From: Octopus vulgaris
Lineage: Eukaryota
NCBI GenBank assembly: GCA_951406725.2
Contig: OX597822.1
Span: forward strand, 70,990,001 to 71,054,000
Reading direction: 5' to 3'
DNA: 64,000 nucleotides
Part shown: positions 3,324 to 61,545 of the stretch, piece after piece
Layout of the letters: the number at the start of each line of letters is the position of its first letter
Position numbering within the stretch: position 1 is the stretch's first letter
Made by a program: the position numbers and the translations under genes
Notes under the pieces: model-generated
Seen by the model: only the letters and a program-made list of their open reading frames with translations
What the model was told of the DNA's origin: nothing
The model's database searches: none

Positions 3324-3380
3324 TGTATGTACACATATCTATATACACCTTTCTCTCTATATATATGTATATATATATAT

Positions 3381-3586
3381 TGTGAAGCATGACTGTCACC
3401 ACTACTACATGAACCCGAAGATTGCAGAATTCAATGCATGAAAGTACTAGTTCAATCAGAATGAACATTTAACATTCTACTATTTCATTTTATTTTATTC
3501 AATTATAATATATTATCTTATATTATATCATTATAAGATTGTAAATAAAACGTGAAAATCAGACAAGGTTGGAATTCCTTTTATTA

Positions 3587-3587
<1 letters not shown>
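3381..3587 (+). mobile_element. Short Penelope 3'/pLTR-derived element with hammerhead
   Basis: (TA)n flanks; 3532-3585 is 53/54 identical to the Penelope 3' end at 9745-9798. Confidence 0.75.
3410..3454 (+). ncRNA. Minimal Penelope-type hammerhead motif (U4->C)
   Basis: TGAAC-CCGAAGA-T-TGCA-gaattcaa-TGCA-T-GAAA-GTAC-TA-GTTCA: 5-bp stem I, palindromic stem III AGTACT, CUA triplet. Confidence 0.65.
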
Positions 3588-3618
<31 letters not shown>

Positions 3619-3741
3619 GCATATACATATATATATACATACATATATATACACGTATATATATTTATACATATTATCGCCATCATTGCTTAATGTCTGT
3701 CTTCCATGCTGGTTGGGTGGGATACACACACATATATATAC

Positions 3742-4005
3742 TCTTTACTCTTTTACTTGTTTTAGTCATTTGACTGTGGCCATGCTGGAGCACTGCCTTT
3801 AGTCGAGCATATCGACCCCAGGACTTATTCTTTGTAAGCCTAGTACTTATTCTATCGGTCTCTTGTGCCGAACCGCTAAGTTACAGGGATGTAAACACAC
3901 CAGCACTGGTTGTCAAGCGATGTTGGGGGGGGGGGGAGACAAACACAGACACACAAACACATGCACACATACATGCACACATACATATATATATATATAT
4001 ATACG

Positions 4006-4043
<38 letters not shown>

Positions 4044-4115
4044 TACGAGTGCCACACAGTGGGACTGAACCCGGAACCACATGGTTGGTAAGCAAGCTAT
4101 TTACCACACAGCCTA
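3742..4115 (-). mobile_element. SINE family A (internal deletion)
   Basis: Reverse complement of family A. Confidence 0.85.
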
Positions 4116-4134
4116 TAAACATACATATATATAT

Positions 4135-4460
4135 CATCATCATCATCATCATCATTTAACGTCCGTTTTCCATGCTAGCATGGGTTGGACGGTTCGACCG
4201 GGGTCTGATAAGCCATGGAGGCTGCACCAGGCTCCAGTCTGATTTGACAGTGTTTCTACAGCTGGATGTCCTTCCTAACGCCAACCACTCCGTCAGTGTA
4301 GTGGGTGTTTTTTACGTGCCACCGGCACAAGAGCCAGTGCAGGCTGGCAAATGGCCACGATCGGTCAGTTCTTTTACGTGTCACTGACACGGACGCCAGT
4401 CAGGTGACGCTAGTAACTGCTACGTTCGAACGGTGCTTTTACATGTCACCAGCACTGGTG
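4135..4460 (-). mobile_element. RTE-tail repeat (family C)
   Basis: Matches 55105-55500; (CAT)n = (GAT)n tail. Confidence 0.8.
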
Positions 4461-4489
4461 TCTTAACTACAATTACCATTTGAATTTTT

Positions 4490-4532
<43 letters not shown>

Positions 4533-5617
4533 ACAACAGGCTTCCTCATAGTTTCTGTCTACCAGATTCACTCACAAGGCATTGGCCAGCTTGGGGCTAA
4601 TATAATAGAAGACGCTTGTCCAAGGTACCGTGCAATGAGACCGAACCTAAAACCAAACGGCTGCAAAGCAAGCTTCTTAACCCCACAGCCATTCCTTTGT
4701 CTGAATGCGGAATAAATTACGAGAAGATCATTGCAACCGTCTGATGATGAAATCCTGATGTAGGCATTGGGTGTCTCCTTAGTGGGTAGGGTTGCTGGGG
4801 AAAGAGGACTTCTAATGCCACTTTAGGGATGTCATTACTGCAGTTTGTACTGAACAGTTCTGCAGACACACACATTACAAGGTTTCACTCACACACACAC
4901 ACACACACACAAACATACACACACACCTTGATCGATAATGTCTGTGCGTACACATATGTCTGTACATGTAAACCAGTTTATGTGTGTGGTTGTGTTATTA
5001 ATGTGAATGAATACATTTCCAATGATGAGCGAAAGTATGTCTGAGTATGTTATTTGAATTGGCTCATCTGCATGTGTATGAGCGTGTGTGTGTGTGTTTG
5101 CATGTGTGTCTGTATATATATGCATGTGAGTGTGTGAGTGTGTATGCCTATGCATATGTGTGCATGTCTAGGAATATATACATATATATATATATATATA
5201 TACATTAATAGATAGATATATGTATGTGTGTGTGTTTGTGTGCATGTCTGTGTGTGTGAGTGTATACACACACACACACACACATATATATATTTATATA
5301 TATATTTATATATATATATGTATGTGTGTGTGTGTGTGTGTGTGCGTGTGTGTGTGTATGTATAGCAGTCCCACATACTAGCACACAGACAAACACACGT
5401 GTTTGAATCTATAATTACTTAATCTTTTCACCCCCAGTGGAACACAATGCCCCTTGAAGATATGTGCGCGTATGCATGTGTATATATATATATATATGTT
5501 ATGTGTATATATAAATGTGTTATGTATGTGTGTGTGTGTGCGTATATACATATGTATGTATGCATGTATATATGTATATACACACATGTGGCTTTCCCAT
5601 CTATTCACACAAACTTC

Positions 5618-5951
5618 ATAATGATGATGAAGACAATGATGAAGATGATGACTGTGCTGATGACTAATGATAGTGGCTATGAAGGTGATGATGATGATGA
5701 TGATGATGACGACGACGACGACCATGATGATTGTGATGATGATGATGGTGATGATGATGATGATATTGATGATGATATTGATGATGGTGATGATGATGAT
5801 GATGATGACGACGACAACCATGAGGATTGTGATGATGATTATTATGATCATGATGATTATGATTATGATGATGATGATGGTGATGATATTGATGATGGTG
5901 ATGATGATGATGACGACGACAACAATGAATTAGATTGTGATGATGATGATA

Positions 5952-6000
<49 letters not shown>

Positions 6001-6029
6001 CGACGACGACGACCATGATGATTGTGATG

Positions 6030-6061
<32 letters not shown>

Positions 6062-6156
6062 GATATTGATGATGATATTGATGATGGTGATGATGATGAT
6101 AATGATGATGATGATGATGATAATGATGACAATGATGATGGTTGTGATGATGATGA
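5618..6156. repeat. (GAT)n low-complexity tract with higher-order duplication
   Basis: Block GACGACGACGACCATGATGATTGTGAT..GATATTGAT repeated at ~5708 and ~6002. Confidence 0.9.
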
Positions 6157-6529
6157 CCAAACGAAAGCTTTATAGGCTAGAAGGATATTTTTCACATAAT
6201 ATATTTCCCAAGTCAGGGTGTGAGACTTCACAGAGAACAGGAATCTAAAAAGAAACAAAATCAATAGGAAAAGAAATTAATATCGCCTTTGGTCACAGCG
6301 GCAGCAGCAGCAGCAGCAGTAGCAGCAGCAACAGCAGCAGCTGCTGATACTGATGATGTGAATGATAATGATGATGCTGATGCTGTTGTTTGTCTTATTA
6401 TTACAGTTTCAATGTTCAATTGCGATAGATATCGAGCAAGTCTAAGATGAACACAAGCCATTATCAGAATGAGAAATTCTGGTCTATTGAGATATATAGA
6501 AAATTTTGTTGTTCCTTCTCACTACAAAC

Positions 6530-6628
6530 CGACACCAACGATAATACAACAAGTGGCGCCGATCTTTAACAATCTTCAAGAAGGTTTTCTTCTTCGTTGA
6601 TGTGTGAAAAAGTAAAAGTTTGTTTAAA
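6530..6628 (-). other. Candidate 99-nt exon (phase 2-2), possibly spliced to an exon starting at 6244
   Basis: Acceptor ttcatttgttccattAG, donor GTTTGT, one open frame [32 protein letters not shown]; next acceptor ttttgtttctttttAG at 6245; no homologue recognised. Confidence 0.3.
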
Positions 6629-6789
6629 CTAATGGAACAAATGAAAGCTCTCAAAGCCTACCCCCATCACATACACGCATACATAGGAGCACACACACAT
6701 GTGCATATTATATATATGTATATACATATGTATGCACACATACATATATACATATATATACCTAAATATATCTATATGTATATATGTAG

Positions 6790-6834
<45 letters not shown>

Positions 6835-6872
6835 TATATACATGTATACATACATACATATATATGTGTGTT

Positions 6873-6899
<27 letters not shown>

Positions 6900-6904
<5 letters not shown>

Positions 6905-7106
6905 ATGTGACCACGTGTATATCGTTGACGATTTTCTTTCTCCGTCTTCCCTTCCTTGGACTTTTCCTTTTTTCTATATTTCTGAAGAAGAGCTCCACTT
7001 GAAATATTAAATCCTCCTTCTTTCTTTCCTTTCCTGAGTGTCCAATAACACTATACTTGTTCCACATCCTCACGTTGTTGTGTTTTCTCTTTGTTCATGC
7101 TTGTAT

Positions 7107-7112
<6 letters not shown>
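6900..7112 (+). mobile_element. Short hammerhead-bearing element in (TA)n
   Basis: Homologous to 61396-61545 (...TTCCTGAG(C/T)GTCCAATAA..TTCCACATCCTC..). Confidence 0.65.
6978..7012 (+). ncRNA. Minimal hammerhead-like motif (CpG-decayed)
   Basis: ATTT-CTGAAGA-A-GAGC-tcc-ACTT-GAAA-TATT-AAAT; homologous to 61401-61433. Confidence 0.5.
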
Positions 7113-7201
<89 letters not shown>

Positions 7202-7212
7202 CACACACACAC

Positions 7213-7465
7213 AGGCGCAGAAGTGGCTGTGAGGTAAGAAGCTTGCTTCCCAACAACATGGTTCCGGGTTCAGTCCCACTGCATGGCACCTTGGGCAAGT
7301 GTCTTCTACTATAACTTCATGCCGACCAAAGCGTTGTGAGTGGATTTGGTAGACAGAAACTGCAAAAATGCCTTAACAACTGATGTTGATGTGTTTACAT
7401 CCCTGTAACTTAGCAGTTTGGCAAAACAGACTTATAGGATGAGTACCAGGCTTACAAAGAATAAC
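7213..7465 (+). mobile_element. SINE family A (internally deleted)
   Basis: Homologous to 32617-33070. Confidence 0.8.
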
Positions 7466-7469
7466 ATAA

Positions 7470-7568
<99 letters not shown>

Positions 7569-7864
7569 TGTATTTATATACATACTTTGTTGTTTGTTGA
7601 TAAGCTTGGTAATTGAAAGCACTCGATGCATTTGGGAATATTAATGTGTTTTATATACACTAGTTTGGCAGTTTGTTGCCTAAACTACTAAGTTAATGTA
7701 TATAAACCCACGCATAACATTATTCATACATAAACACACACACACACACATTTATACATATATATGTGTACATATATATATATACTTATATACATATATA
7801 TGTATTCATACACACACACATATATACATACATACAAATATACATATATGTACACACACATATA

Positions 7865-7932
<68 letters not shown>

Positions 7933-8217
7933 GCGTATATGTGTATATGGATAGTTATGTGGGTGTTTCTTTATATTGTGTATGTGTGAGTGTATGTATG
8001 TGTGTGTGTGTGCGTTTGCTATAAGCTTGCTTGAAGAAGAAAGGCAATATCTGCAGCCACTGTGACTCCCAGTGATGATCCAATGCGATTACCATAGCTG
8101 GTGCTTAGTTTGAAATTCTAGAGTTCAGTTGTGAAGAGCAAACAATATGGAAAGAGAGAGACTTCCAAAGCAATACGATTATAGTATAGGAAGGATTGAA
8201 TGAAATATTTGATATGG

Positions 8218-8885
8218 ATGCAGGCATGGCCATGTGATTAAGAGCCTCGTTTCATCACCACAAAACCACGATCCCATGGTTCAGTCCTAATAGGCCGACA
8301 AGATGGCAGAATTGTTAGCATGCCGGACAAAATGCTTAGCAGTATTTCATCTTCTGTTATGTTCTGAGTTCAAATTCTACCAAGGTTGACTTTCAGGGTC
8401 GAATAAATAAGTACCAGTTATTCATTGGGGCGTCGATGTAATCATCTTAATCCCTTTGTCTCTCCTTGTTTGTCCCCTTTATGTTTAGCCCCCCTGTGGG
8501 CAATAAAGAAATAAAAGGTCACAGCACCTTGGGCAAGTGACACTTACTATAGTTCCTGTTCAATCAACATCTTGGGAGTGAATTTGGAGACTGTGTGGAA
8601 GCCTGTCATATGTGTGTGTGTATGTGTGTGCATGCGTGTATGTATATATAAATATATATGTGTAAATGTGTGTGTGTGTGTGTGTGTGTATCTCTGCTTG
8701 ACAAACGGTATAGATTTGCTTATGTAGTCATAACTTAGCAGTTCGATAAAAAGAGACCAATAAAATAAGTACCAGACTTTAATAACAAATACATACTGGG
8801 AGTTGATTTGTTGAACAAAACCCTTGAAGATGGTGCAGCAGCAGGAATGTAGTCCAGTGGCTGAAACAAGTAAAACCTAAAAGAT
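8218..8885 (+). mobile_element. Old family A SINE with nested family B SINE (~8292-8515)
   Basis: Head interrupted after GGTTCAGTCC by a B copy, resumes at CACAGCACCTTGGGCAAG. Confidence 0.7.
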
Positions 8886-8907
8886 ATATATATATATATA
8901 TATATAT

Positions 8908-9798
8908 ACAAAACGTAACATCCCATACTGCCTAGCCAGAAGAATTTGTACTATTGTAGAAGATGCAAATATCAGGAACAAACGCCTAATAGAACTAAGA
9001 GAATTTTTGCTCAAACAAAAATACCCATCTCTACTTATAGAAAATGGCATACAGCGGGCTATAAAAATACCTATACAACAACTTAGGACAACCCAAGGAA
9101 GAGGAAAACAAGAACAAGTCATACCATTCATAGTGACACACAACCCATGTCACCAGAATATCTTCAACATTGCCAAAGCAAACCTTCCAATCATTGCCCA
9201 AAGTAATGAATTAAAAGACATAATCAAGGATCGAGCTATGGTGCTTAGTAAAAGACAGCCTAAAAACTTGAAAACATTACTAACAAAGGCAAAATTTGAC
9301 CTCAGCAACAAAGACCAAACATTCACGGTATCTAAATGCAATGATAGCCGATGTGGCACATGCCAATTCATACATACCGGTCAATATATAAACACAAAAA
9401 CCGGGAAAATATTCACAAACGCGAATATGAACTGCAAAAGCAGAAATTTAATTTACTGCATCAAATGCCCAAATTGTGAAGAAATATATGTAGGTCAGAC
9501 GGGAAACGCACTATTAGAACGCTCACGTGTACACCGGCAACAGATTAGAGACCCAGAGGTCCGTCAGATACCTTTGAGTAACCACCTAGCAACATGTGGT
9601 CGGAAAATATATATAATATTTCCATTCTACAAATTACACAGCCCAAGTGAAATCGAGAGGAAAATCAGATACAGTTTGCATAACCTAGCACTCTGGAGCC
9701 TACCCAGCTGTATTTATAGCACAGAATCACTCATCTTGCTACAGTATAAGATTGTAAATAAAACGTGAAAATCAGACAAGGTTGGAATTCTTTTTATT
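8908..9798 (+). mobile_element. 5'-truncated Penelope-like retroelement (RT C-terminus/linker + GIY-YIG endonuclease)
   Basis: Open frame 8908-9768: KRNIPYCLARRICTIV...CNDSRCGTC...NCKSRNLIYCIKCPNCEEIYVGQTG...ERSRVHR...HL; both flanks are (TA)n. Confidence 0.92.
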
Positions 9799-9816
9799 TA
9801 TATATATATATATATA

Positions 9817-17787: not shown

Positions 17788-18265
17788 TCATCATCATCAT
17801 CATCATCATCATTTAGCGTCCGCTTTCCATGCTAGCATGGGTTGGACGGTTCAACTGGGGTCTGTGAAGCCAGAAGGCTGCATCAGGCCCAGTCTGATCT
17901 GGCAGTGTTTCTATGGCTGGATGCCCTTCCTAACGCCAACCACTCCATGAGTGTAGTGGGTGCTTTTTACGTGCCACCTGCACAGGTGCCAGACGGAGCT
18001 GGCAAATGGCCACAGACGAATGGTGCTTTTTACGTGTATATGTATGTATATATATATGGTGGCATGTAAAATTGCCGGTGACACGTAAAAAGCACCCACT
18101 ACACTCACGGAGTGGTTGGCGTTAGGAAGGGCATCCAGCTGTAGAAACATTGCTAGATCAGACTGGGCCTGGTGCAGCCTTCTGGCTTCCCAGACCCCAT
18201 TTGAGCCATCCAACCCATGCTAGCATGGAAAGCGGACGTTAAACGATGATGATGATGATGATGAT
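17788..18265. mobile_element. Head-to-head inverted pair of family C repeats
   Basis: 17788-18035 (-) and 18058-18265 (+). Confidence 0.85.
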
Positions 18266-46676: not shown

Positions 46677-46913
46677 TATATATGTGCATATATATATATA
46701 TCATCATCATCATCATCATCATTGTTTAGCGTCCGCTTTCCATGCGAGCGTGGGCTGGACAGTTCAACTGGGGTCTGGGAAGCCAGAAGGCTGCACCAGG
46801 CCTAGTTTGATCTGGCAATGTTTCTATGGCTGGATGCCCTTCCTAACGCCAACCACTCCATGAGTGTAGTGGGTGCTTTTTATGGGTGTGTGTATATATA
46901 TATATATATATAT

Positions 46914-48470
46914 TATACAAATTCATCCTACTGAACAACTATTTCATGTTCGATACAGTTCACTATCGACAAAAATGTGGAATTGCAATGGGAACCTGAG
47001 CTGCTCCAGTGATTGCAAACTTTGTGATGGGTTACCTAGAGCTTAAAATATATCAGTCATCACTACAAAAATATGGCACCTCATTTGATTGCTATTTAAA
47101 GGAGAACTGGAAGAGGTATTAGGACGATTGCTTTATACTTTGGAAAGACAGCATGGACAAACTCCTTGATTTCAAAATAAGGCTTAACAATATTAATAGC
47201 AACATGTAATTCACCATGGAGCACAGCAGTAAACAACTCCCTTTTCTTGACACCCTAATTAAAATAGTCAATAACCACATCGAAACAGACATCTTCTATA
47301 AACCCACAGATTCTAGACAATACCTATTATTCAACTCATGCCACTCCAAACACATAAAAATTAATATACCATATAATTTAGTGAAAAAAATCTGTACCAT
47401 AGTTTCGGACACCTATACTCATGAACGAAGACTCCTTGAACTCAGATCAATACTAATCAAAAGACATTACCCAATATCATTAATAAATGATGGCATTAAA
47501 TGAGCTAAGGAAATAGATATATGAACATTAAGGGAAATCAACCAAAATACTAAACCAGACTTAAAAATACTCCCATACATCTCCACATATAAACCTAGAA
47601 ACAACGAAGCTTTCAACATTATCATCCAAAATCTTCCCATCCTCACCGAAGATAACACAATGAACAAAATTTTAGGCTCACACAAAATTATCAAAAGCAA
47701 AATGCAACCTAAATCATTGAAAAAAATATTAACCAGTGCAAGACTATATCCATTAACAACAGAACCAAAAGTGAAAAAATGTGGTCGACCTAACTGTGGT
47801 ACTTGCCCCCATCTCTTGGAGGGTTCAGAGTTCCACTTTAAACAAGGTGAAATATTTAAGATTAAATAAAATTTCACCTGTGCCTCAGAAAATCTAATCT
47901 ATGCCATTACATGCTTAGGCTGTGGTAATAATTATATTGGCCAAACAGGAATATTACTCCATTGAAGAACTATTCTCCACAAAGAACAAATCTACCACCC
48001 ACAATACAGACAGATACAGGTTAGTGAACATATAGAAAGGTGTGCTAGGAATCTTAATCCTAATTTCCTAATTTTCCCCTTCTATCAATGTTCACAGAAC
48101 ACCTCAGTACAACAAAGAATGAATAAAGAGGCAACTTTCATCAATAAATATTTTCCACAACTCAATATGAACACATAACATAATAGAGAACACTACTAAC
48201 CTTTCAATTAATACCACTAAGCCCTATACATCCCATACACCATTTACATTACAGATCTATATCTACCCTAATTGCACCAAATCCAGAACAACTTACCTCC
48301 CTTACACATAATCTTTTTACTCAGGGACTAGTAGACCTGACACTGTTCAGTAATCGGTGTGCATTCAAAGCAATAATTTGTAAATTCATGAAACCAGTAT
48401 GCTTTTGAATCTCTTTAACAATTCACAATAATGACTTTTATTACTTTTATCCCTACCTAAGTTCATCTAA
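46914..48470 (+). mobile_element. Penelope-like retroelement pseudogene (RT + GIY-YIG)
   Basis: FILLNNYFMF..QKCGIAMGT*AAPVIANFVMGYLE; WKRY*DDCF (disrupted YxDD); LPFLD..FYKPTD; CGRPNCGTCP; ENLIYAITCLGCGNNYIGQTG; multiple stops; coding relic ends ~48178; starts at (TA)n. Confidence 0.92.
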
Positions 48471-61395: not shown

Positions 61396-61545
61396 TTATA
61401 TTTCTGACGAAGAGCTCCGCTTGAAACATTAAACCCTCCTTCTTCCCTTCCTTCCTGAGCGTCCAATAATACTATATATGTTCCACATCCTCGTGTTGTT
61501 GTGTTTTCTCCTTGTGTTTTCATGTTTGAATTAACTTTATATATA
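61396..61545 (+). mobile_element. Short hammerhead-bearing element nested in a SINE's internal microsatellite
   Basis: Interrupts the minus-strand SINE at 61180-61718; homologous to 6900-7112. Confidence 0.65.
61401..61433 (+). ncRNA. Minimal hammerhead-like motif
   Basis: TTT-CTGACGA-A-GAGC-tcc-GCTT-GAAA-CATT-AAA. Confidence 0.6.

Follow-up and report, generated by a model that had tools for sequence, protein, structure and literature searches.

Two plus-strand sequence pieces in Octopus vulgaris, one with a hammerhead motif and one with a GIY-YIG coding region, as probable insertions of a single Penelope-like family

The 64,000-nt stretch of Octopus vulgaris contig OX597822.1 (assembly GCA_951406725.2, positions 70,990,001 to 71,054,000), hereafter the window, is AT-rich, abounds in (TA)n, (CA)n and (GAT)n runs, and contains two plus-strand pieces 6 kb apart, namely a short hammerhead-bearing copy (3380..3585) and a coding copy of a Penelope-like element (PLE) whose open reading frame (ORF) occupies 8910..9669 and whose 3' end lies at 9798. 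Both copies begin in (TA)n, which lies to their left at 3358..3379 (short copy) and 8884..8907 (coding copy), and both terminate at the identical base, after which (TA)n resumes (3586-3611 and 9799-9816, respectively). A preliminary description, made from the sequence alone, had reported that the last 54 nt of the short element match the end of the Penelope copy at 53 positions, and BLAST within the window confirmed this for 3532..3585 and 9745..9798 on the plus strand, with C at 3578 against T at 9791 as the sole mismatch. The similarity extends to 55 of 57 bases from 3529/9742 (E 1e-21), upstream of which the two copies are unrelated, and no further match better than E 0.002 was observed in the window with either piece. 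An exact 26-nt pattern from the shared end had no match in metagenome, genome and viral contigs, and, apart from brief AT-rich words, the short copy matched none of the 16 related loci at the DNA level (best E 0.005). The evidence on the wider family is drawn from the window, public-run contigs and metagenome loci.

The ORF of the coding copy (8910..9669, +), delimited by profile match and alignment, is 5'-truncated and encodes the end of the reverse transcriptase (RT) thumb, a C-x4-C-xx-C linker (C144, C149 and C152) and a GIY-YIG endonuclease with a CCHH motif, for which the Pfam match has an E of 4e-4, just under the cut-off. Its relatives comprise 59 longer proteins and 37 of similar length, the top three of which (P0001–P0003) show 59–62% identity between their C-terminal part and the window fragment, and the closest named protein, from Octopus sinensis, reaches 78% over 149 residues. 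RVT_1 is followed by GIY-YIG in one protein in P0001 and P0003, and the ORF continues upstream of 8910 in one contig end, with the RT core outside the window copy; the single ORF with RT and then GIY-YIG, the hallmark of PLEs with a C-terminal endonuclease (EN+), is thus seen through the relatives and this contig end. The CCHH residues C187, C190, H209 and H226, with the two cysteines between GIY and YIG, are nearly invariant in 12 aligned sequences. The likeness to the relatives persists to residue 254 (ERKIR, 9669), in agreement with the earlier remark that GIY-YIG similarity is lost after ERKI, and the final ~15 residues, with a conserved E and N, are absent; the terminal E..F...FK..LN-type block is present in 10 of the 11 aligned relatives (P0071 being truncated too) and does not follow ERKIR in the window copy. 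Catalytic residues beyond the core of GIY-YIG are given as R, H, E and N in PMC8557442, of which R205 and H209 are kept in the window ORF, and since the final E and N are lost the endonuclease of the coding copy is predicted to be dead. The presence of a CX2-5CxxC linker places the coding copy, as judged from its sequence, with the Neptune/Nematis type, and the two Neptune/Nematis features found in the window are this linker and the (TA)n setting of both copies. The protein-based locus search yielded no relatives in genome and viral contigs, versus 16 in metagenomes. Four Penelope-like proteins among the relatives (P0005, P0008, P0010 and P0044) are filed under bacterial symbionts of bivalves and are likely host DNA in those assemblies.

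The hammerhead previously proposed at 3410..3454 (+) of the short copy was recovered as a minimal type I motif by a covariance model, a descriptor scan and the architecture of the relatives. The motif comprises helix I of 5 bp (3410-3414/3450-3454), the core CCGAAGA (3415-3421), an unpaired U between core and helix II, helix II of 4 bp (3423-3426/3435-3438), GAAA (3440-3443), the palindrome GTAC (3444-3447) and UA, which precedes helix I's 3' strand, with the cut predicted after 3449. Helices I and II and a palindromic helix III are thus found, and GAAA and UA are intact, but the core departs from the canonical CUGANGA by a C in place of U4 at 3416, which makes it either a variant or a decayed one. 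The covariance model, which was built from the motifs of eight relatives alone with the window sequence excluded, ranks 3409-3455 first in the 64 kb (19 bits, E 0.0026), the runner-up having an E of 0.93, and a match of equal quality in the descriptor scan was found in 1 of 20 shuffled windows. Neither scan detected a hammerhead in 8908-9800, as had been stated for the coding copy. The whole-window Rfam search gave no hammerhead among the 150 of 292 matches listed, which included microsatellite-driven microRNA matches instead.

The 16 metagenome loci (L001–L016), found by protein search, encode relatives at 35–50% amino acid identity, and a strong hammerhead match lies behind the endonuclease in 11 of them, comprising the eight training loci, one with a motif identical to a training motif and two held out (E 4e-9). 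The core is situated 63–415 nt past the stop in 10 loci with a strong match, L007 being left out for its early stop. In the eight aligned motifs, the same eight as the training set, 10 of 11 pairs change on both sides, a level reached in 0 of 500 shuffles, which relatedness can inflate. The U-U in place of the usual G10.1-C11.1 pair at the base of a 4-bp helix II is common to all eight aligned relatives and the window copy, and the 4-nt palindrome after GAAA reads CCGG, GCGC or CGCG in relatives and GTAC in the window. In the closest locus, L001 (50% amino acid identity), helix II starts and ends as in the window, and the palindrome plus UA is present. A scan that permitted U or C at position 4 returned CUGA in all eight loci with this core type, for which reason the C at 3416 most probably arose in this copy; the alternative is a family-wide variant, and if this were true the family would add a natural variant ribozyme. 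The U4C change considerably to strongly lowers hammerhead activity in vitro yet permits viroid infectivity, as described in PMC3088659, and the window ribozyme is likely weak or inactive. Weaker second hammerhead matches were observed downstream of the first at L014:2460-2495 (−) and L013:1324-1368 (+), one of them inverted, as expected for inverted or tandem pieces of the pseudo long terminal repeat (pLTR). The 110 nt upstream of the ribozyme harbour clustered ACGT-centred palindromic words (GACGTC, CACGTG) in L002, L003, L004, L007, L009, L010, L013, L014 and L016, which are perhaps promoter elements.

The connection between the two copies was found in public-run contigs, where 20 of the 24 runs listed contain most of 8908-9800 and where four runs from four studies were mapped, giving 24 contig records (Logan contigs); no RNA run is on record among those containing the sequence. 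In X17 record 8 (1132 nt), window 9234-9669 corresponds to letters 1-436, 9669-9755 to letters 866-952 and 9745-9776 to letters 1101-1132, with 1 difference in the 436 nt of 9234-9669 and 4 in 9669-9755. X19 record 16 (799 nt), from another study and under another organism label, has identical gaps of 429 and 148 letters. The second gap equals the length of window 3384-3531 (148 nt), and the mapped contig pieces overlap because TTGT occurs at both 3380-3383 and 9752-9755. At one loose end in X20 the AT-rich spacer of the short copy directly precedes 9746, and a second loose end, on the opposite strand, carries four letters equal to 9741-9744, seven new letters and then window 3380-3395. By hand comparison, the seven new letters with TTGT show 4 mismatches in 11 against 9745-9755, the same count as in both long contigs. 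Since the 148-nt contig gap fits 3384-3531 and the X20 ends join family sequence, the short copy very likely represents the final ~206 nt of the coding copy's family, that is, a 5'-truncated piece composed of a pLTR with hammerhead, an AT-rich spacer and a tail. The earlier label of mini-element was therefore right as to a short hammerhead copy and overstated as to a separate entity, as the copy appears colinear with the family 3' end in the manner of a 5'-truncated copy or solo pLTR.

The same contigs place two deletions in the coding copy, so that the internal deletion of the preliminary description stands with its number corrected. At the junction of deletion 1 (9669..9670, +; X17 record 8 and X19 record 16), 429 letters are absent, comprising the ORF end, the stop and the first part of the 3' untranslated region (UTR). 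A 75-nt piece of the family 3' region is retained at 9670..9744 (+), and by eye or pattern it carries a splice-acceptor-like end and a TATA-like word at 9711. At the junction of deletion 2 (9744..9745, +), contigs and lengths indicate that ~159 nt are absent, which would consist of 7-8 nt and window 3380-3531 including the hammerhead. One letter is common to the ends of each deletion, and deletion 2 lies within an imperfect 9-of-14 repeat. We infer that the intact 3' end runs in the order of ORF end, ~380 nt of UTR, 9670-9744, 7 nt and 3380-3585, and on this order the ribozyme core of intact copies would be ~500 nt past the stop and the cut site 136 nt before the 3' end. In X20 record 24 a 39-nt end piece (9760-9798) stands beside an inverted pLTR piece, because of which the last ~39 nt of 3532-3585 are likely the Penelope tail; this is one contig, and no full pLTR-ORF-pLTR copy was seen among the records. 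The family looks young in view of the 1 difference in 436 nt. The 0.93 of words found in the best run equals the share of 31-mers clear of both junctions, a weak hint, which was not counted as evidence, that the deletions are private to this copy.

The two pieces are best explained, with a probability of roughly 90%, as independent dead insertions of one young Penelope-like family into (TA)n, in which the short copy represents the 3' ~206 nt and the coding copy has lost the hammerhead and the ORF end by two deletions. The earlier proposal that they are pieces of one Penelope family with the ribozyme in its 3' pLTR is thus supported by the 148-nt fit in two studies and by the X20 ends. Several observations weigh against this explanation. 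Only 2 of the 24 contig records bridge the 3' region; what the 148 and 429 letters are is deduced from their length, the sequence at their ends and the number of mismatches; a repeat with many copies can yield mosaic Logan contigs; and the X20 loose ends carry another organism label. Regarding the ribozyme, the core bears the U4C change, the folding energy of the motif is unremarkable (z -0.5, no better than shuffles), a local Rfam search with E up to 10 returned no hammerhead at 3410-3454, and five of the 16 loci lack a strong match, with weak matches only in L006 and L012 and none in L008, L011 and L015 (0 nt and 83 nt of sequence follow the ORF in L011 and L015, respectively). The absence of anything in common upstream of 3529/9742 would be expected if the short element were an unrelated hammerhead repeat that had captured the last 54 nt of the PLE, and the absence of the window's junctions from every contig of the four mapped runs if the coding-copy junctions were an assembly error. 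An unrelated repeat is disfavoured, however, by the exact 148-nt fit in two studies, by the X20 loose end, in which the short copy's 5' letters adjoin letters that match 9741-9744, and by the occurrence of this ribozyme type in the ORF relatives. An assembly error would leave the family link unchanged, and the explanation as a whole is considered very improbable.

Regarding the origin of the deletions, the 1 difference in 436 nt from the contigs indicates that both gaps are recent, deletion 2 begins just past an acceptor-like AG at 9743-9744, and PLEs carry introns near the ribozyme, as reported in PMC4209133 and PMC2377424, all of which would suit a coding copy reverse-transcribed from spliced or ribozyme-cut-and-rejoined RNA. 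With the junctions as given by the contigs, though, GT..AG is impossible for both removed pieces whichever strand is read, while the acceptor-like site is kept on the intron side with the would-be exon lost and the ribozyme cut site falls inside deletion 2 rather than at an end. Such processing scars are therefore very unlikely, and splicing as the cause was rejected on the junction letters. RT template jumps or later repair are the likely source of the two deletions given the one-letter overlap at the deletion ends and the lack of a possible GT-AG intron; an internal microhomology-mediated deletion in a Penelope copy is described in PMC3846280.

For the insertions of one family, known PLE biology suggests a course in which the GIY-YIG endonuclease would nick (TA)n and RT would begin at one set position, 136 nt downstream of where the ribozyme cuts, giving the common 3' end, with synthesis halting after ~206 nt in one event and proceeding further in the other, so that early stops would leave solo pLTR stumps. 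The ribozyme, without a helix III of its own and with only the 4-nt palindrome, would need dimerization or assistance from protein in order to cut, and the short copy would have been copied from uncleaved RNA, as it continues ~70 nt past the cut site. The protein of PAc, described in PMC11167929, makes nicks in AT-rich DNA and initiates reverse transcription of uncleaved RNA at a set position, and a similar process would fit both the common 3' end and the ~70 nt past the cut site in the short copy. According to PMC4209133, most minimal hammerheads occur as single motifs, probably in connection with truncated PLEs, show low activity and require dimers, and the tail-plus-inversion layout of X20 record 24 has counterparts in PMC8557442 and PMC3846280.

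Three breakpoints fall within ~11 nt of one another, a sample of three noticed after the fact: the short copy has its 5' end here, deletion 2 its left end, and the inverted piece of X20 record 24 its 5' end. Near them (9741-9745) stand the acceptor-like AG and an initiator-like word 32 nt after the TATA-like word at 9711, and no TATA/initiator pair was found at the matching place upstream of the ribozyme in 12 relatives. The clustered breakpoints possibly mark a fixed pLTR start. Penelope of Drosophila virilis, according to PMC2377424 and PMC4209133, contains a promoter internally, and the end of its 75-bp intron lies directly against the ribozyme. As a tentative and rather doubtful extension, a fixed pLTR start ~45 nt upstream of the core (possibly a transcription start or intron end), at which reverse transcription begun in the tail would run off, might generate many ~210-nt hammerhead-bearing solo pLTRs in (TA)n, which would be the state from which retrozymes arise, and the same site might act as a jump point that yields ribozyme-less copies.

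The clustered breakpoints and the TATA-like word 32 nt before an initiator-like word could also signify that the short copy belongs to a self-propagating non-autonomous family, either a fixed-length solo pLTR or retrozyme-like, with its own promoter and borrowed PLE enzymes. Two further points agree with this: another hammerhead element, close in length (213 nt), lies in (TA)n at 6900-7112, and animal retrozymes derive from pLTRs according to a preprint (10.64898/2026.07.22.740005). Against such a family, the short copy is a single monomer outside any tandem array, ends away from the ribozyme cut site and is, to the extent examined, colinear with the full element; moreover, the other copy of the second family is cut to 141 nt, as plain truncation gives, and the breakpoints are three in number and post hoc, with no matching TATA/initiator pair in the 12 relatives. 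A self-propagating family is thus judged unlikely, and plain truncation of a PLE copy is preferred for the short element.

Other elements were also observed in the window. The second hammerhead-bearing repeat, found at 6900-7112 (+), 213 nt within (TA)n, and at 61397-61536 (+), has intact cores (CTGAAGA at 6982 and CTGACGA at 61404), and its two copies agree at 86.5% over 141 nt and have no sequence relationship to 3380-3585; it is likely the pLTR of another Penelope-like family. A longer and older Penelope-like ORF remnant, with the C-terminal half of RT and the endonuclease, begins in (TA)n and occupies 46901-48175 (+), showing 41–45% identity to the same relatives, and no convincing hammerhead was detected behind it by descriptor and covariance-model scans. 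An inverted pair of 193 nt occupies 17790-18265, its members 93% complementary and separated by 90 nt; more copies lie near 46700 and 54500, and it is apparently a common foldback repeat.

Both the hammerheads of PLE terminal repeats and the scattering of truncated copies are already published (Cervera and de la Pena 2014, PMC4209133), and 31 recently active Penelope-like families are reported in Octopus vulgaris in PMC13282606. The words hammerhead and ribozyme do not occur in the main text of the O. vulgaris repeat paper, whose supplementary repeat library may hold the family, no naming of an octopus family was seen in the main text of PMC4209133, and a literature search on octopus and cephalopod Penelope elements found no description of this family's ribozyme. 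The result has little weight as a discovery; its practical use is that a short hammerhead repeat of the octopus genome is tied to its parent element, and a young family is a fair test case for the PLE ribozyme role and for a possible fixed pLTR start. The short copy resembles the minimal hammerheads in metazoan PLE pLTRs of PMC4209133 in its type I form, a helix I that is short, the base left unpaired after A9, a very small palindromic helix III that requires a dimer, its terminal-repeat site and, as for most of those motifs, its single-copy state, and it differs from the motifs described there in the U4C of the window copy and in the U-U for G10.1-C11.1 and the 4-bp helix II that the window copy shares with the eight relatives. 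The hammerhead in the pLTR, characteristic of C-terminal EN+ PLEs, is seen here at 3410-3454, placed in the family 3' end by length and end match.

Among such PLEs, the Neptune/Nematis elements described by Craig et al. (2021, PMC8557442) likewise combine RT with a CX2-5CxxC linker and a CCHH-bearing GIY-YIG and insert at (TA)n with no clear target-site duplication; their 30-40 nt tail and the inverted truncated piece by it have a possible counterpart in X20 record 24, and a (TA)n bias is proposed there for this type. In contrast to those elements, both window copies are dead fragments, and the type was assigned here by linker rather than by tree, with Neptune and Nematis undivided. Like the non-LTR retrozymes of the preprint (bioRxiv 10.64898/2026.07.22.740005), the short copy is non-coding and small in size, with a type I hammerhead and pLTR kinship, but those retrozymes are described as tandem units, each with a complete hammerhead, whereas a single copy was found in the window by BLAST, a monomer ending at the PLE 3' end. 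The idea that an ORF begins in the tail was dismissed because its three frames are all closed, and in PAc, the Poseidon of Anolis carolinensis (Frangieh et al. 2024, PMC11167929), the ORF is described as starting inside the ribozyme, while the window 3' end has no open frame through it and Poseidon is without the linker cysteines. The window copies nevertheless share with PAc, as far as it is described there, a fixed 3' end downstream of the hammerhead, an AT-rich target and probable insertion from uncleaved RNA.

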